Assembly (NCBI GenBank): GCA_021107435.1
Contig: JAIOSV010000060.1
Span: 9,824-73,823, forward strand
DNA length: 64,000 nucleotides
Direction: 5' to 3'
From: Candidatus Sabulitectum sp.
GTDB lineage: Bacteria; Fermentibacterota; Fermentibacteria; Fermentibacterales; JCC-6
Made by a program: the position numbers and the translations under genes. This document shows, one piece after another, positions 7,563 to 15,964 of the stretch. Every line of letters begins with the position of its first letter. Position 1 is the stretch's first letter. The notes beneath the pieces were generated by a model. It saw only the letters and a program-made list of their open reading frames with translations, made no database searches and had not been told where the DNA came from.

Positions 7563-8702
7563 ATGTTGAACGGGCTTTACACCAGAAGAGCTGAGGTATC
7601 ACTGAGAAACGAACAAGATGCAGTTGCTGAACTGGCAAGCAAACTTCACATGGAAAAAATGGGTGCTGTTATCTTCTTCTGCTCAGCGGACTACGACCTC
7701 ATGAAGCTCGGAACGGCAATTGACAAGACATTCTCCTGTCCTGTTGTCGGTTGTACCACCGCTGGAGAGATTTGTTCAACTTACGGAAATGGCGGAATAG
7801 TAGCAGTCAGCTTCTCTTCTGAAGCTTTTCGTTTTCACTCTCTTCTGATTGAACGGCTGCATGAGGTTGAGTTTGAAACAATGAACTCTAAAGTACATGA
7901 CCTGGAAGAAAGCCTTGAATTTTCAAAAGGATTTGATCCCGAGAAAATGTTTGGTTTCCTGCTTATTGATGGCCTGTCAATCATGGAAGAAACTGTCACT
8001 GCTGCTTTGTACTCCGCACTTCGCGGTGTCTCAATAATTGGAGGATCCGCTGGCGACAGTTTGAAATTCAAGGAAACAAGCGTATTCGCTAATGGGCGAT
8101 TTGTAACAAATGCCGCTGTTCTTACGATTGTGGAAACACTGTTACCATTCAAAACATTCAAATTGCAGCACTTTGTTCCATCCGACAAAGAAATGGTAAT
8201 AACGGAAGCAGATTCCTTCAAAAGAATCGTGTACGAAATCGATGGTGGACCGGCTGCCGAAGAATACGCGGAGATCATAGGACTTAAGGCAGAAGAGCTG
8301 ACTTCGCAGATATTTGCCATGTATCCGGTTATGCTGCAGATTGGTGATGACTGGTATGTGAGGTCTATTGAGAAAGTGAACGACGATGGAAGTCTTACCT
8401 TTTTCTGCGCAATCGATAACGGCTTGCCATTAACCGTTGCAGAAGGAGTCGGGCTTGTTGAAACCCTCAAAGAAAAAGTGGAGGAGATTCAGAGGGAATT
8501 CCCTTCAATCGAACTGACTCTTGGATATGACTGCATATTGCGCCGTCTTGAAATCAACGAGAAAAACAAAAGTAAAGAAGTCGAGGCAGAGCTGAACAAA
8601 ATCAACTTTATCGGATTCAGCACTTTCGGTGAACAATTCAATTCCATTCATGTTAACCAGACTCTTACCGGGGTCGTTTTCGGCAGCGAACTACAGGCAT
8701 AA
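7563..8702 (+). CDS. FIST N/C-domain sensor protein, NosP-like
   Basis: 379 aa. Contains ...[36 protein letters not shown]... and a C-terminal ...[28 protein letters not shown], the typical FIST architecture. It sits immediately upstream of a sensor-less hybrid kinase. Confidence 0.7.
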
Positions 8703-8706
8703 TATT

Positions 8707-10866
8707 ATGTGTACAACAGAAGATCTGAGGCAGAAACTGACCTGCCTTGAAAAGCAACTGGTAAAACAGAAGAAGATAAACGCTTCACTGAAGGAAAGAG
8801 TGAAACGAAGCATCCGGTCAACTGGAGATTCCTATTCTGTCTTCGAGAATAACATCCTGCTACAGGAACAAATAAAAGCCAGGACAACCGACCTGGAAAA
8901 TGCAAAACTGGCTGCGGAAATGGCCAGTAAGGCAAAAAGCGAATTCCTTGCAAACATGAGCCATGAGATCAGAACACCCTTGAACGGTGTACTGGGAATG
9001 AACACTCTCCTGATGGATACAAAACTTACTGACGAGCAGCGCAGGTATGTCAACACCGTAAGAAGCAGCGGTGAAGCCCTTTTGAACATAATCAATGATA
9101 TTCTGGACTTCTCAAAAATAGAGGCTGGAAAACTGGAACTTGAAGATGTCAACTTCAACCATCTTCTAACTCTCGAAGACTTCGCTGAAATAATGGCAGT
9201 AAAAGCAGATGCAAAAGGAATCGAATTCATTTGTGCTTCGGCGCCGGATATACCCACAATGCTGATTGGCGATCCTGGAAGGCTCCGACAAATCCTCGTG
9301 AATCTTACGGGAAATGCAATCAAGTTCACTGCTGAAGGAGAAGTATCTGTAACAGCCACACTTGCTTCATCAAATAAGGATGATATCACCATAAGATTTT
9401 CAGTAAAGGACACAGGTATGGGTATCCCTGAGCGCAAACAGCAGAAGCTGTTTGAAAGCTTTACTCAGGCAGACTCCAGCACTACAAGACAGTTTGGCGG
9501 TACAGGGCTGGGTCTTGCAATATCCAAACAACTCGCTGAACTCATGGGCGGTGAGATTGGTGTAAACAGCGAACCTGGACGGGGATCGGAATTCTGGTTC
9601 ACCGCTGACTTCAAAAAATCTGACGCTGCAGTACAGAAGCTTATGCAACCTGACGCACTCAAAGGTATTCGTGTTCTTATCGTGGACGACAATACCACCA
9701 ACAGGGACATCCTTTCAACTCAATTCAGGATATGGGGAATAAGAACGGAGGAAGCCGAAGACGGTCCATCCGCGCTCAGAATCCTCTACGATTCAGTTGA
9801 CAGTAATGATCTATTCAGAATTGCGGTACTTGATATGCAAATGCCCGGGATGGATGGGGAAACCCTCGGAAGAGTAATTAAATCCGACAGGAAACTGCAA
9901 GACATCCACTTGCTTATGATGACATCACTGGGACAGCGGGGTGATTCGAGAAGAATGAAGGAGATAGGCTTTTCTGCGTATCTGACGAAGCCGGTAAAAC
10001 AATCCGAACTGTTTGAAGCACTCGCAGTACTGGTAGGCATGAAAACAGTATCAAAAAACGATCTTGTAACGAAGTACTCTCTTAGCGAAATGAAGCTTGA
10101 CAAGTTCAGGATTCTTCTGGTTGAAGACAACATCACCAACCAGCAGGTGGCCATGGGAATTCTTAAGAAAACAGGTGTTCGCGTTGATGCCGTTGCAAAT
10201 GGTCTTGAATCTGTTTTGGCTCTTGAACAGGTTCCATATGATCTGGTGTTCATGGATATACAGATGCCTGTAATGGATGGACTGGAAGCAACCAGAGCGA
10301 TCAGAAGCCCTGACTCAAATGTGCGAAATCGTAATGTACCAATAATTGCCATGACAGCTCATGCCATGCAGGGAGACAAAAACAGGTGTCTTGAAGCAGG
10401 AATGAATGACTATCTGTCGAAACCTGTCAGTCCTCTTCCTATGGCAAAGGTGTTGAAAAAGTGGCTTGACTTTAAAGCTGAACTTGTTCCTGGGAAAACA
10501 GAGCAGCCATCAGAAAATGCAATTGGTGCGGATTGTATCAGCATTTTTAATGCAGAAGAATTCCTTGAGCGAATGATGGATGACAGAAATCTGGCCAGTC
10601 TGATAATCCAGGAATTCCTTAAGAATACACCTGTGCTCATTGCTGAATTGAATAATCATATTCAGAACAACACTCTGACTAAAGCCGGACATGTTGCTCA
10701 CTCCCTGAAAGGCTCTGCGGCAAACCTCAGCGCTTCTCTGTTTGTAAAGACCGCTTTTGAAATTGAGCAGGCTGGAGCTGCGGGAAACACATCCCTTCTG
10801 AAGAAGCTCCTGCCAGTTCTCAAGGATCGCTTCGATGAGCTTAAGGAAGCTCTTCTGCACTTCTAA
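8707..10866 (+). CDS. Hybrid histidine kinase: coiled coil - HisKA - HATPase - REC - REC - Hpt
   Basis: H-box [15 protein letters not shown]; G-boxes DTGMGI and [10 protein letters not shown]; two receiver domains ([11 protein letters not shown] and [11 protein letters not shown]); Hpt motif [10 protein letters not shown]. The ATG at 8707 lies 5 nt after the FIST stop. The ORF-track start at 8629 would overlap the FIST gene. Confidence 0.9.
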
Positions 10867-11771
10867 GCTTTCCTGAATACACCGGTGGAAAGGTATCTGT
10901 CGCCTCGATCAGCTACCAGCACCACAAGTGTTTCACCCGGACTCATGTCTTGAGCCACCTGAACCGCCGCACTTACTGCTGCGCCTCCACTCATGCCCGC
11001 AAACAAACCCTCTTTCAGAGCCAGTTCTCTGGTCATTGAAAAAGCATCCGAATCAGATTGGCTGATGATGCTGTCCAGACGATTCTCATCAAATATCGCC
11101 GGCATCACAGATTCCTTCATATTCTTCAAGCCCTGAATACTGTGACCAGGCTCAGGCTCCACTCCAATTATCCGGATGTCCGGTGAAAACTCCTTCAACC
11201 CGCGACTGACTCCCATCAGCGTTCCGCCGGTGCCCATTCCGGCAACAAAGGCGTTTATTCCACCGGCAGTCTGTCTGATGATCTCAGGAGCAGTTGATTC
11301 GTAGTGACTCAACCAGTTTGCGCTGTTGCTGTATTGATCCGGCATGTAGAACTTGTCCGGCTCTTCACCAAACAACTGTTCTGCCAGAGAGACAGCTCCG
11401 TCTGCTCCACGCTCTCCGGGTGACAGAACAAGCTCGGCACCAAAGGCGGAGAGTATGTGTCTCCGCTCCACACTTACACCTTCTGGAAGAACCAGTTTAA
11501 CCTTGTAATCCATTGCAGCTCCGACCATTGCCAGACCAATCCCTGTGTTCCCGGATGTAGCTTCCAGTATGGTCTTCCCCCCGTCAAGAAGCCCCCTTTT
11601 CTCAGCATCCCTCACCATCCACAGGGCGGATCTGTCCTTCACTGAACCGCCGGGATTTGTTCCCTCAAGTTTCAGAAGTATCCTGGCGCCACCCTCGGAA
11701 GCCAGGTATCGGAGCTGCACCAGCGGTGTATTTCCAATAGAGCTAAGAATTCCCTCGATATTCTTCATCAT
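10863..11771 (-). CDS. cysK: Cysteine synthase (O-acetylserine sulfhydrylase, CysK/CysM family)
   Basis: GNTPLVQL...[19 protein letters not shown] (PLP lysine motif) and GTGGTLMG. Its stop codon overlaps the stop of the convergent kinase gene (10863-10866). Confidence 0.9.
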
Positions 11772-11789
11772 TGCATTTCCCCTTAACGC

Positions 11790-11818
11790 AAAAAATCCCG
11801 CGACCTTCCGGCCACGGG
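11790..11818 (-). terminator. Intrinsic terminator / attenuator inside the cysK 5' leader
   Basis: Minus-strand RNA: CCCGUGGCC-GGAA-GGUCGCGGG (9 bp including 2 G.U pairs), followed by AUUUUUU. It ends about 18 nt before the cysK ATG, upstream of the AAGGGGA RBS. Confidence 0.55.
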
Positions 11819-11845
11819 CAATTGTAATTGAATGTTCAGACTATT

Positions 11846-11929
11846 TTACAATACAAACCCCTCTGCCGATACAGAAATGTCAGCAGAACAACAAAAAAAT
11901 ACAGCGCTGTGGTTTGTTTTCTTCATCAT
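11846..11929 (-). CDS. Candidate 27-aa leader peptide with tandem Cys codons (MMKKTNHSAVFFCCSADISVSAEGFVL)
   Basis: My own translation; the ORF is too short for the ORF track. The AUG lies about 7-8 nt downstream of the -10 hexamer, so the transcript would be leaderless. UGU UGU occupy codons 13-14 and are immediately followed by a 7-bp hairpin. Confidence 0.35.
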   Translation of the reverse strand: MMKKTNHSAVFFCCSADISVSAEGFVL

Positions 11930-11936
11930 GGGAACA

Positions 11937-11966
11937 ATTCTACAAAACAGGATGCGGCTTTGTCAA
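11937..11966 (-). promoter_or_regulatory. Sigma70-type promoter upstream of cysK
   Basis: The minus strand reads TTGACA (11966-11961), 18 nt spacer, TAGAAT (11942-11937). A near-identical copy precedes satP. Confidence 0.55.
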
Positions 11967-11989
11967 AAAGGGGAGCCCGAAGACTCCCC
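11965..11989 (-). terminator. Intrinsic terminator of satP
   Basis: Minus-strand RNA: GGGGAGUC-UUCG-GGCUCCCC (8 bp, UUCG tetraloop) followed by UUUUU. The U-tract runs directly into the TTGACA -35 of the cysK promoter. Confidence 0.75.
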
Positions 11990-12009
11990 GCAAATTGATG
12001 ACAGATTGC

Positions 12010-12567
12010 TTACTTCTTTATGATTCCGATTGGAAGCACAATTCGTCCCTTGTCCTCGTTCAGTACTTCAGCAGCTGCAAGATAAACGGCCGAAAGACCG
12101 CAGAGTATTCCCTCATAGCCGGAGAACTTAAGAAAGAAGGAAGGCATTGTGAACCAGTGATCCACAGCAAGCAGCCAGAAAAGTACTGTGACTGACGCAA
12201 ATACAATCTGGATTGCTCTGTGCTTCCCGAAGGTTGCGAACCAGAGCCAGAAAGCAAGAAGCCCCCACATAAACAGATACCAGCCCAGAAAGATCTTGTC
12301 CGCTCCGCCCTTCATGATAATGAACACAAGAGTGATCCAGAAAAACCCGAAGCTGGTGAAAGCAGTTGTACCGAATGTGTTGCCTTTTTTGAATTCCATT
12401 ATACCTGCGACAACCTGAGCAAGGCCTCCAAAGAAAATCCCCAGGGCGAGAATGCTTGGATCGTTCAGTTTAAAGAATCCTGCGTTGTGAATGTTAAGGA
12501 TCGTTGTGGTCATTCCAAATCCCATGAGACCCAGGGGCGCCGGATTCGCCAGCGTGTTTGCGCTCAT
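12010..12567 (-). CDS. satP: Acetate/succinate uptake channel, GPR1/FUN34/YaaH (SatP) family
   Basis: N-terminal signature NPAPLGLMGFGMTTTILN; six hydrophobic helices; 185 aa. Confidence 0.88.
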   Translation of the reverse strand: MSANTLANPAPLGLMGFGMTTTILNIHNAGFFKLNDPSILALGIFFGGLAQVVAGIMEFKKGNTFGTTAFTSFGFFWITLVFIIMKGGADKIFLGWYLFMWGLLAFWLWFATFGKHRAIQIVFASVTVLFWLLAVDHWFTMPSFFLKFSGYEGILCGLSAVYLAAAEVLNEDKGRIVLPIGIIKK

Positions 12568-12620: not shown

Positions 12621-12650
12621 ATTCTACAATACATGGAGCAGGTTTGTCAA
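12621..12650 (-). promoter_or_regulatory. Sigma70-type promoter upstream of satP
   Basis: The minus strand reads TTGACA (12650-12645), 18 nt spacer, TAGAAT (12626-12621). By my manual alignment the spacer is 12/18 identical to that of the cysK promoter. Confidence 0.55.
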
Positions 12651-12652
12651 AC

Positions 12653-12685
12653 AAAAGGGGAGCACAACAGTGCCCCCCCCTTTTT
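12653..12685 (-). terminator. Intrinsic terminator after kbl
   Basis: Minus-strand RNA: GGGGGGCAC-UGUU-GUGCUCCCC (9 bp including 1 G.U pair), then UUUUGUUUGACA. On the plus strand the hairpin is also followed by TTTTT, so it could act bidirectionally. Confidence 0.7.
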
Positions 12686-13952: not shown

Positions 13953-14204
13953 TCAGTCCTGGAATCTGCGAACAAGTTCACAGATTTTGTTAACTGTGTC
14001 AAATGCCTCAGGGGTTGCTTCTTTGTCGGGAAGGGAGACATGACACTTCTTCTCAAGGAAGACCTTCAGGGAAACCATGGAGAAACTGTCAACGATGCCG
14101 GAAGAGATAAGGGGGGTATCGAAGTCAACCTCTATATCGTCGTCTTCATCCACATACTCGTCAATCACATACTCAAGAACCATATCTTTCATTTCATCAG
14201 CCAT
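13953..14204 (-). CDS. Small acidic carrier protein (ACP / DltC-like, phosphopantetheine attachment)
   Basis: 83 aa and highly acidic. SSGIVDSFSMVSL matches the carrier-protein D-S-(L/F) attachment motif. Its stop overlaps the kbl RBS (GGGAGG). Confidence 0.65.
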   Translation of the reverse strand: MADEMKDMVLEYVIDEYVDEDDDIEVDFDTPLISSGIVDSFSMVSLKVFLEKKCHVSLPDKEATPEAFDTVNKICELVRRFQD

Positions 14205-14218
14205 AACAGTTCCTCTCT

Positions 14219-15964
14219 TTAATCGTCTTCAAGGGTTGAAAGATCGCCAACTTCCTCGCCCCACTCAAGTGCCTTCAGATATCTTCTCAGTATCTTGCCT
14301 GAACGGGTTTTAGGAAGTTTTTCACTGTATTCGATCTCCTGCGGCATCGCCAGAGGTGAAAGTCTCTTCCTGATGAAGTTCATGATATTCAGTTCAAGAT
14401 CATCAGAAGGCTCATAACCGGGATTAAGGGTAATGAAGACCTTCACAACTTCCATGTTCACCTCATCGGGCTTGCCAATGGCGGCTGCCTCTGCGATTGC
14501 CTCGTGCTCCACAAGAGCTGATTCTATTTCAAACGGTCCAACAAGGTGTCCGCCCGTATTGATAACATCGTCATCTCTGCCCACAAACCAGTAGTAACCA
14601 TCCTTGTCAAAACTTGCTCTGTCTCCGGAGACATACCACAGCGACTCATCGGTACGCAATTCGGCAGGCTGTGCATCGTCTGCCGCGCCGACAAACTTGC
14701 TTCTGTAAATGTCCGGTTTCTTCACATACTCTCTGAACATGGATGGCCAGCCGGGTCTGAAGGCAATAAGACCCACAGTACCAGGTTCTGTAACCGGCTT
14801 ATGCGTCTTAAGGTCAAGAATTCCCGCGACAATGCCGGGAAAGGGTTTTCCCATGGAGCCGGGTTTGATCTTCATGCCCGGGAAGTTGGTTATCATCATG
14901 GAACCGGTCTCGGTCTGCCAGAATGTATCAAGGAATGGAAGTCCATAGACCTTCTCGCTCCAGATTACTGCTTCCGCGTTAAGAGGCTCACCTACTGAGG
15001 CCAGGTGTCTGAGGCTGGAAAGATCGAACTGCTTCACAAGCCCTTCACCGTCACGCATGAGAGATCTGATCGCAGTAGGCGCCGAGTACCATACGGTGAT
15101 TTTGTTGTCCTGGATGAAGTTATACCAGGCAGCCGATGTGAATCCGGAATCCAGCACACACTGAGTTGCACCAAGGCTCCAGGGCCCGATGATTCCATAA
15201 CTTGTGCCGGTAACCCAGCCGGGATCGGCAGTACACCAGTAAATATCATCATCATTCAGATCCAGCACCCACGAAGTTGTAAGAGCCTGCCCCCATACAG
15301 AAGCATGAGCATGCTGAGCACCCTTGGGCTGACCTGTAGTTCCGGATGTATAGTGAAGAACAGACGGAGTTTCCGGTCCGGACTCGAACACATCGAATTC
15401 TTCTACCGGCGGCGCTTCCTCCACCTGAAAGAATATCTCTCCCTCTTTGAGTTTGTCGGGATTACCTTCAACAACAACAATCTTCTCCAGTGCCGGGAGT
15501 CTGTCCTGAATCTTTCTGACCTTCTTCACATGCTTCCGAGTAGTGAAGATTACCTTTGTGTCAGCGCTCAAAAGCCTTACCTCAAGCGACTCGTCACCGA
15601 AGGCGGAGAAAAGAGGCTGAGCAACAGCACCCATCTTCAGAACACCAAGGAAGGAAATATACAGTTCAGGAATCTTGTCCATGAACAGACATACTTTTTC
15701 GCCGGGTTCAACTCCAAGATCTTTAAGGAACTTTGCGTACCCATTGGAAAGCACTCTCAAATCGTTAAATGTGTAGGTCTTCTGCTTACCACCGAAGCCC
15801 TGCCAGATAAGAGCTTTCTTGTCACTTTTTCCCTGGGCACAGATTCTGTCGGAACACATGGCACCGATGTTGAGGATCTCGCCTTCCTTCCATCCGAGAA
15901 CTTCTTTTGCAATGTCCCAGCTGAAGTTCTCTCTTCTTTTCTCATAGGACCCGATATTACTCAA
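14219..15964 (-). CDS. acsA: AMP-forming acyl/acetyl-CoA synthetase (AcsA-like adenylating enzyme)
   Basis: LHYTSGTTGQPKG, YWCTADPGWVTGTSYG, FWQTETG, and a KLPKTRSGKILRR...GDLSTLED C-terminus resemble B. subtilis-type AcsA. TTG start with GAGGAG 5 nt upstream. Confidence 0.8.
   Translation of the reverse strand: MSNIGSYEKRRENFSWDIAKEVLGWKEGEILNIGAMCSDRICAQGKSDKKALIWQGFGGKQKTYTFNDLRVLSNGYAKFLKDLGVEPGEKVCLFMDKIPELYISFLGVLKMGAVAQPLFSAFGDESLEVRLLSADTKVIFTTRKHVKKVRKIQDRLPALEKIVVVEGNPDKLKEGEIFFQVEEAPPVEEFDVFESGPETPSVLHYTSGTTGQPKGAQHAHASVWGQALTTSWVLDLNDDDIYWCTADPGWVTGTSYGIIGPWSLGATQCVLDSGFTSAAWYNFIQDNKITVWYSAPTAIRSLMRDGEGLVKQFDLSSLRHLASVGEPLNAEAVIWSEKVYGLPFLDTFWQTETGSMMITNFPGMKIKPGSMGKPFPGIVAGILDLKTHKPVTEPGTVGLIAFRPGWPSMFREYVKKPDIYRSKFVGAADDAQPAELRTDESLWYVSGDRASFDKDGYYWFVGRDDDVINTGGHLVGPFEIESALVEHEAIAEAAAIGKPDEVNMEVVKVFITLNPGYEPSDDLELNIMNFIRKRLSPLAMPQEIEYSEKLPKTRSGKILRRYLKALEWGEEVGDLSTLEDD

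Follow-up and report, generated by a model that had tools for sequence, protein, structure and literature searches.

Ahead of the cysteine synthase gene cysK of Candidatus Sabulitectum sp., a member of the uncultivated FCB-group phylum Fermentibacteria, lies a short RNA leader that we read, with a probability of about 0.75, as a ribosome-mediated (leader-peptide) transcription attenuator that would sense charged tRNA-Cys and control cysK. The leader is located in a stretch of 64,000 nucleotides (nt) of this genome (assembly GCA_021107435.1, contig JAIOSV010000060.1), which we refer to as the window in the following, and our interpretation draws on its sequence, on the sequences of related loci and on models of RNA folding. 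An initial annotation of the window had proposed a promoter, a leaderless-type AUG at position 11929 that opens a 27-codon open reading frame (ORF) with the tandem codons UGU UGU, a hairpin and a terminator, and all of these are present at the positions given there (Table 1; all leader coordinates refer to the minus strand of the window).

In the mechanism that we propose, a strong promoter, whose -10 box sits 6-7 nt before the AUG, would give rise to a leaderless RNA, and the ribosome would start at its 5' end. When cysteine is plentiful, the ribosome would pass both Cys codons of the short ORF (sORF), reach the stop codon 13 codons further on and cover segment 2, which runs from the 3' arm of hairpin P2 through the G-run into a U/G-rich stretch. 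With segment 2 covered, the terminator (the 3:4 pairing of the classical model) would form, and RNA polymerase would halt ~20 nt short of the cysK ribosome binding site. When there is no translation, a domain built of the helices P1, P1a and P2 would close and sequester segment 2, and the terminator would form again. When Cys-tRNA is scarce, the ribosome would stall with a Cys codon in its A site, and its mRNA channel would cover the 5' arm of P2; segment 2 would then pair with segment 3, the resulting antiterminator (2:3) would take the 5' arm of the terminator, and the polymerase would read into cysK. The transcription start and leaderless translation, the stalling at the Cys codons and the actual termination and read-through are the steps that we infer here.

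Architecture of the cysK leader

The leader is transcribed from a putative sigma-70-type promoter that matches the consensus at 11 of 12 positions. Seven nt (TGTTCCC) separate its TAGAAT box from the ATG of the sORF, and no Shine-Dalgarno sequence is found between the -10 box and this ATG, neither in the window nor in any other lineage. In all relatives, a TAGAAT-like -10 box is placed 6-7 nt ahead of the sORF, with C-A at positions -1/+1; because of this spacing, the RNA is expected to be leaderless, and the A of the ATG (11929), or a nucleotide beside it, is predicted to be the transcription start.

The hairpin P2 represents the 1:2 pairing of the classical attenuation model. Its 5' arm begins 1 nt past the second Cys codon, and its core, CUGCUGA-N10-UCGGCAG (11886-11880 with 11869-11863), is lengthened to eight pairs by RNAfold. 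The attenuator terminator comprises nine pairs, a GNRA loop and a T-run, and is predicted to form with -18.2 kcal/mol and P = 1.0 in the window. Perfect-stem terminators outside ORFs number four in the 64 kilobases (kb), and only this one does not follow the end of a gene. About 20 nt past it, the AAGGGG and the ATG of cysK follow, and since only these ~20 nt are available after the T-run, cysK appears to have no promoter of its own.

The same elements might also be read as translational attenuation of the kind found at Ms5788A in mycobacteria, with stalling opening a structure in which the cysK ribosome binding site is buried, and with a terminator-like hairpin that only stabilises the RNA. 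Such a mechanism has been shown experimentally for a leaderless polycysteine sORF (10.1101/834739). In the window, however, folding predicts a largely unpaired cysK Shine-Dalgarno sequence (P unpaired 0.9-1.0), no conserved helix that would sequester it was found in the relatives, and the hairpin shows all the hallmarks of an intrinsic terminator. We therefore regard this reading as highly improbable and prefer transcription attenuation.

Table 1. Features of the cysK leader in the window and sORF peptides of related loci (L numbers). Positions are those of the window.
Feature	Position	Strand	Description
satP terminator	11989-11970	minus	8 pairs, 6 of them G-C, then TTTTT
Leader promoter, sigma-70-type	11966-11937	minus	TTGACA 11966-11961, 18-nt spacer, TAGAAT 11942-11937
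sORF, predicted leaderless	11929-11846	minus	27 codons and stop; MMKKTNHSAVFFCCSADISVSAEGFVL
Helix P1 (outer)	11917-11911 with 11859-11853	minus	Predicted by RNA folding
Closed 5' domain (P1, P1a and P2)	11853..11917	minus	Predicted by RNA folding; putative anti-antiterminator
Helix P1a	11910-11905 with 11893-11888 (Cys codons)	minus	Predicted by RNA folding
Putative regulatory tandem Cys codons	11893-11888	minus	UGU UGU, codons 13-14; kept in all relatives
Hairpin P2 (1:2)	11887-11880 with 11869-11862	minus	8 pairs by RNAfold
Antiterminator (2:3)	11868-11849 with 11830-11809 (span 11809..11868)	minus	Predicted by masked-ribosome folding
Attenuator terminator (3:4)	11818-11790	minus	CCCGUGGCC-GGAA-GGUCGCGGG (11818-11797), then AUUUUUU
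cysK (cysK/cysM type)	10863..11784, including Shine-Dalgarno	minus	AAGGGG 11784-11779, ATG 11771
sORF peptide, window			MMKKTNHSAVFFCCSADISVSAEGFVL
sORF peptide, L001			MMIKTSRNTSFEFLCCSADISVSAAGSVL
sORF peptide, L004			MMRNTNHNEVFFCCAADIPASAEAFVM
sORF peptide, L005			MKRKTNPGAVFCCCIVDINLSAEGFSL
sORF peptide, L033			MENITAYTNNCCTADITDSAMGSML
sORF peptide, L034			MKSNSYLGYMICCPADMLCSAGEFLL
sORF peptide, L014			MNRQAHIPNSCCTADRNDSAGGSVL

Conservation among Fermentibacteria

Relatives were collected with a CysK scan of species-representative genomes and with a metagenome scan for a degenerate DNA pattern made of the invariant leader columns; the analyses below rest on 12 usable sequences from about five lineages. 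In the species-representative set, the closest relatives of CysK (64-85% identity) all come from metagenome-assembled genomes (MAGs) of Candidatus Fermentibacteria, and every Fermentibacteria locus retrieved (the window, L001-L006, L014, L025, L030 and L033-L036) carries the unit ahead of cysK. The DNA pattern retrieved six metagenome contigs, in each of which it lies ahead of cysK: four Sabulitectum silens assemblies, a duplicate of L006 and one new lineage, L034.

Across the lineages, the elements first proposed for the window, i.e. the sORF, its tandem Cys codons, the hairpin and the terminator, have been kept, and both the hairpin and the terminator carry compensatory changes. P2 is 96% paired, with one pair changed on both sides (C-G to U-A), and the terminator is 97% paired, with two such pairs (G-C to A-U). 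Taken together, the two hairpins are 96.9% paired over the 12 sequences and contain three double-changed pairs (13 cells), which none of 500 shuffles matched. A covariance model (R1) built from the 12 sequences recovers only these leaders, with 104-149 bits, when run on the window and 38 loci. It is because the whole unit is conserved in all Fermentibacteria relatives that we consider the leader to stand well above chance; as a single sequence, the window provides modest evidence, given a fold z-score of -1.75 and given that about 4% of random ATG-initiated ORFs of 15-60 codons in the window hold Cys-Cys.

Outside the phylum, no homologous Cys-Cys sORF was found within 400 nt upstream of cysK in 21 loci from Deltaproteobacteria, Victivallales, Spirochaetes, Actinomycetota and others. 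One TTG/GTG-started Cys-Cys sORF (MISGLCSVCCFFMRIDRGLSRAC; L018:2612-2680), located ~390 nt upstream of cysK in a MAG of the Thermodesulfobacteriota, bears no similarity to the Fermentibacteria leader, and we judge it to be a chance match because of the ~4% background just mentioned. Likewise, Rfam contains no family that matches the whole window at its gathering threshold or the region 11500-12300 at E <= 10, and the four related loci that were searched gave noise-level hits to small nucleolar RNAs only. Known leader families, T-boxes and riboswitch families were rejected for lack of such a match; for a T-box riboswitch, the leader is also too short (~110 nt before the terminator).

The conserved association with cysK bears on a second reading, according to which the unit is an independent gene for a ~140-nt small RNA (sRNA) or the mRNA of a Cys-Cys peptide, and cysK expression results from constitutive read-through of the terminator or from an overlooked promoter. 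The unit is indeed compact and flanked by a strong promoter and a strong terminator, terminated attenuator RNAs act in trans in other bacteria (rnTrpL, PMC6614838), and ~180 nt lie between terminator and cysK in the Sabulitectum lineage. Against this, the unit is always found directly ahead of cysK, whatever gene precedes it, be it kbl (L002, L003), another gene (L001, L004) or, elsewhere, satP. Furthermore, in most lineages only ~20-30 nt separate the T-run from the start of cysK, which leaves no room for a promoter, and the peptide is not conserved except for Cys-Cys and the residues that the RNA structure imposes. The only internal promoter candidate that we considered, TTGTAA-N19-TACAAT within the leader, was rejected: it is weak, has suboptimal spacing and is not conserved in L033 or L014. 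An independent small gene thus seems quite unlikely to us, and we retain the attenuator as the preferred interpretation.

Two lineages show further peculiarities. In the unclassified MAG binchicken_co42_201, two satP-leader-cysK units are found on separate contigs (L014:2700-3000 and L025:770-1065); their sORFs differ slightly (MNRQAHIPNSCCTADRNDSAGGSVL and MKRQAQKLHSCCTAGRNDSAGGSVL), and their promoter regions are very A/G-rich, with AAGACA as the -35 box. This pair may represent either a duplicated regulated locus or two strains that were binned together. In the Sabulitectum silens lineage, and only there (L030:2688-3000, L033, L035, L036), a C/A-rich spacer of ~180 nt, which has no match in Rfam, extends from the attenuator terminator to cysK.

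The short reading frame and its predicted fold

The sORF bears a clear coding signature. All of 11 sequences keep this frame open, whereas stops interrupt the two alternative frames in 10 and 8 of them. It varies between 25 and 29 codons in length, with the tandem Cys codons at positions 11-15, yet the part from Cys-Cys to the stop is gapless and measures exactly 13 codons in every lineage; insertions and deletions (+6, -3 and -6 nt) are confined to the variable N-terminal part. The string TGTTG is invariant in all relatives, and the sole changes in the Cys codons are a Cys-preserving UGC in L004 and the addition of a third Cys codon in L005. For comparison, the genes in the window use UGU and UGC equally, and Cys accounts for 1.6% of their codons. 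The residues that have been kept after Cys-Cys (x-A-D ... S-A-x-G) are encoded by the very codons that build hairpin P2 (CCGCCGA / UCGGCGG) and the G-run, while the loop codons of P2 and the N-terminus of the sORF vary freely. The conserved residues thus coincide with RNA-helix codons and Cys-Cys, and we therefore conclude that selection acts on the RNA and on Cys-Cys, not on the peptide product.

When folded without a ribosome, the sORF adopts one and the same three-helix shape in all lineages, in which the outer helix P1 joins the N-terminal codons to the last ones. The sequence of P1 differs from lineage to lineage: it is ACAAACC/GGUUUGU in the window, UACAGCAUA/UAUGCUGUA in L033 and AAAGU-AACUCU/GGGAGUU-UCUUU in L034.

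This constancy of shape under changing sequence is also what could be expected of a terminator controlled by a ligand or protein, i.e. of a riboswitch or an RNA-binding-protein attenuator in which the P1/P1a/P2 junction acts as the sensor and the ORF is incidental. The succession of a 5' domain and a terminator is the usual layout of riboswitches, and the conserved UGUUGU and GACA motifs could be read as binding motifs. However, no Rfam family matches, and the junction and loops hold few conserved nucleotides of the sort typical of aptamers. The Cys-Cys codon pair is the sole strongly conserved unpaired motif, and the regulated gene makes cysteine. Moreover, the open frame, the fixed distance between -10 box and AUG, the stop after 13 codons and the indels in multiples of three would all have to be coincidences. 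We consider such a sensor unlikely, and return to the ribosome as the sensing element in the following.

A predicted ribosome-dependent antiterminator

For the alternative structure, the initial annotation had suggested that GGCAGAGGG can pair with CCCGUGGCC, the 5' arm of the terminator, at 7 of 10 positions. This pairing exists, but it amounts to seven pairs over nine positions (one G.U, two A.G). It runs on by C-G and U.G into the terminator loop and constitutes the base of a far longer antiterminator, which occupies the 3' arm of P2 as well as the 5' arm and the first loop base of the terminator. From the base upward, this antiterminator consists of CGGC/GCCG, a central G.U, GGG/CCC and an inner helix of UUGUA-UUG with CAA-U-UACAA.

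To account for the ribosome, transcripts were folded in a co-transcriptional protocol, in which the RNA ends before the 3' arm of the terminator and is masked as far as 13 nt beyond the P-site. When a Cys codon occupies the A site, the same long antiterminator is predicted in 12 of 12 sequences, with energies of -15.1 to -24.8 kcal/mol (-16.7 in the window); its base is formed by (U)CGGC and GCCG(R), and its inner helix is lineage-specific. Once the ribosome is placed at the stop codon, the antiterminator retains no more than 0 to -5 kcal/mol, and the arm of the terminator is left free. In the identical protocol, the proven attenuators trpL, thrL and leuL of E. coli yield -15.6 to -23.3 kcal/mol for the stalled ribosome and 0 to -4.5 kcal/mol for the ribosome at the stop. 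To refold into the terminator along the direct path, the antiterminator has to overcome a barrier of 9.5-16.7 kcal/mol (9.8 in the window), which is comparable to or higher than in the controls (5.8 for trpL, 8.8 for leuL and 13.2 for thrL).

The layout of ribosome-mediated attenuation that had been suggested for the window is thus supported, and the ribosome geometry fits the model exactly: the 5' arm of P2 lies inside the mRNA channel of a ribosome that awaits Cys-tRNA, and a ribosome at the stop codon covers the 5' strand of the antiterminator.

The pattern of sequence variation is in line with this picture. The basal pairs of the antiterminator are invariant, with 95.4% paired in register as compared to 24-51% when the strands are slid against each other, and only the central pair varies (G.U in seven sequences, G-C in three and A-U in two). 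Bases with two alternative partners, namely UCGGC in the 3' arm of P2 and CCC and GCCG on the 5' side of the terminator, are invariant, while their single-partner counterparts change (C/U, A/G). Furthermore, the positions inside the internal loop of the antiterminator are exactly those that covary within P2 or the terminator. Since dual-partner bases are fixed and single-partner bases change, we take this as an indirect argument for the antiterminator.

A repeat is found in the same region of the window. Two tandem copies of the motif UUGUA lie immediately ahead of the sORF stop and across it (GUUUGUAUUGUAA; 11846-11860 and 11821-11831, minus strand), and a downstream UUACAA is therefore able to pair in two registers. 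In the first, it forms a small hairpin, P3, which contains the stop codon and belongs to the terminated form; in the second, it forms the inner helix of the antiterminator and places GGG beside CCC.

Points against the proposed attenuator

Several observations weigh against this interpretation. The first group concerns the antiterminator itself, in which no pair has changed on both sides and which shows no excess of such changes over shuffles. Dinucleotide shuffles of segment 2 of the window give a z-score of -0.98, with 52 of 300 being as good as the original, and the corresponding z-scores in the relatives range from +0.5 to -2.7; a good part of the pairing is explained by G-rich/C-rich composition alone. 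In addition, equilibrium folding lets the terminator win with P ~0.9-1.0, whatever ribosome mask is applied. The possibility that the antiterminator cannot compete thermodynamically, raised in the initial annotation, thus turns out to be true at equilibrium, but co-transcriptionally the antiterminator forms in 12 of 12 sequences. We do not regard the equilibrium test as discriminating, because attenuation is decided kinetically and because the proven attenuators trpL, thrL and leuL give the same outcome.

The second group concerns the sORF and its distribution. There are only two regulatory codons, and the independent lineages number only about five. The covariance model detected no second copy of the leader beside another sulfur gene, neither in the 64 kb nor in the flanks of the 38 loci; an approximate pattern search allowing three mismatches likewise gave no second copy, and these searches thus provide no evidence for a regulon. 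A scan of the window for further leaderless genes behind TTGACA...TAnnnT promoters gave none. Finally, in two of the four Sabulitectum silens assemblies (among L030, L033, L035 and L036), 1-nt indels in the G-run after P2 shift the last six codons of the sORF, which then ends in ...GLCCR instead of ...GSML; these frameshifts are probably assembly errors.

An extension of the attenuator model would have the conserved P1/P1a/P2 three-way junction, which surrounds the Cys codons, bind a sulfur-pathway metabolite or a protein directly, resulting in a riboswitch-attenuator hybrid, or would have the ~140-nt terminated RNA act in trans as an sRNA. We deem either very unlikely.

Relation to known attenuators

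The leader resembles trpL, thrL and leuL of E. coli, which also have a short ORF with tandem codons for the end product, 1:2, 2:3 and 3:4 pairings and a terminator before the structural gene; trpL, like the Fermentibacteria leader, makes do with just two regulatory codons. Unlike these leaders, the one described here senses, by our reading, cysteine, is apparently leaderless and has an extra outer helix, P1, around the entire sORF. The leader shares no sequence homology with them and matches no Rfam leader family, and the host belongs to an uncultivated FCB-group phylum.

Leaderless polycysteine sORFs are known from mycobacteria, where they form the 'Cys ribulon', with Ms5788A and with Rv2334A upstream of cysK1-cysE as examples (Canestrari et al. 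2020, bioRxiv 10.1101/834739). For Ms5788A, the mechanism has been shown to be translational: the downstream Shine-Dalgarno sequence is sequestered, and a ribosome stalled at the Cys codons relieves the repression (10.1101/834739). What these systems have in common with ours is a leaderless sORF, here predicted to be so, with at least two consecutive Cys codons as the first ORF in the transcript of a cysteine gene, and, by our reading, the relief of repression by a ribosome that stalls at these codons. In contrast to Ms5788A, the Fermentibacteria leader has an intrinsic terminator and a cysK Shine-Dalgarno sequence that is predicted to be open. While the Cys tract is C-terminal in several mycobacterial sORFs, it always lies 13 codons before the stop in Fermentibacteria. 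The mycobacterial sORFs are unrelated in sequence and belong to another phylum. Lastly, the Cys ribulon comprises several sORFs, whereas one copy is seen here in the 64-kb window and the flanks, which cover a small part of the genome, apart from the one MAG with two cysK paralogs that each have a leader.

The closest parallel in design, compared here by its description, is uORFC-8-2, a predicted upstream ORF with tandem Cys codons (positions 14-15) and an intrinsic terminator ahead of cysS in Rhodobacterales (Brewer et al. 2021, PMC8632094). It likewise has stems that overlap the Cys codons and a terminator with a U-run, and it has been read as a transcription attenuator that senses Cys-tRNA. 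It differs in the regulated gene, which encodes cysteinyl-tRNA synthetase, in its alpha-proteobacterial host and in its dominant Cys codon (UGC, as opposed to UGU here), and it was not described as leaderless. In Actinobacteria, candidate Cys-rich leader peptides have been predicted upstream of cys operons and cbs, with 'no obvious terminators' (Seliverstov et al. 2005, PMC1262725). A leaderless leader peptide that drives a hairpin terminator/antiterminator attenuator is known from ilvBNC of Corynebacterium glutamicum (PMC11857589); this system differs in that it senses branched-chain amino acids and belongs to the Actinobacteria.

Each ingredient of the leader thus has a precedent, and what is new is the combination of a leaderless sORF, tandem Cys codons, a full terminator/antiterminator and cysK, together with the host phylum. 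The novelty suggested at the outset, namely that such an element had not been described in this kind of organism, holds for the phylum; it is nevertheless smaller than implied, as the cysS upstream ORF (PMC8632094) and the actinobacterial Cys leaders (PMC1262725) came earlier. Of the Fermentibacteria papers listed in our literature search, none deals with gene regulation to judge from title and abstract.

Genomic context

The product of cysK is a cysteine synthase of 302 amino acids (aa), which matches TIGR01136 cysKM with 369.8 bits (curated cut-off 344). Upstream of the leader lies satP (12567-12010), encoding an acetate transporter of the SatP/AceTr family (AceTr_1, E = 1.5e-64). Because the T-run of the satP terminator overlaps its -35 box, the leader promoter appears to be insulated from upstream transcription.

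The same TTGACA-N18-TAGAAT design is found ahead of satP at 12650-12621, where it also adjoins the terminator of the previous gene, kbl. Given their identical design, the two promoters indicate that this motif is the normal strong promoter of the organism, and the succession of a terminator and a promoter looks like a recurrent intergenic layout in this genome. The satP promoter region (12621-12678, minus strand) is followed by a 5' untranslated region of ~45 nt with the ribosome binding site GAGAGGAAAG, unlike the leader.

Downstream, cysK is monocistronic, since the gene that follows is transcribed towards it. This convergent gene is a 745-aa ORF on the plus strand (8629-10866), whose 3' end shares 4 nt (10863-10866) with that of cysK, and no terminator was found between the two. 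Judged by its translation alone, the convergent ORF resembles a hybrid sensor histidine kinase / response regulator. Further upstream, beyond kbl, an acidic ORF of 83 aa and an ORF of 581 aa (13953-15964, minus strand) look, again going by their translations, like an acyl-carrier protein and an acyl-CoA/AMP-dependent synthetase.

Implications

The leader offers a clean, conserved and testable example of attenuation, although it will come as no surprise to a specialist in the field. Its promoter nearly matches the E. coli consensus, which should make the element amenable to tests in E. coli or in a cell-free system, and the covariance model can be used to annotate the leader in Fermentibacteria MAGs. 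For the biology of the phylum, it indirectly suggests that Fermentibacteria rely on sigma-70-like TTGACA/TAGAAT promoters, on intrinsic terminators and on leaderless translation. The constant spacing of 13 codons between Cys-Cys and the stop would be a clean natural example of the ribosome serving as a ruler. If our interpretation is correct, cysteine, sensed with a full classical terminator/antiterminator design in an uncultivated FCB-group phylum, would join the short list of amino acids for which leader-peptide transcription attenuation is known or predicted.

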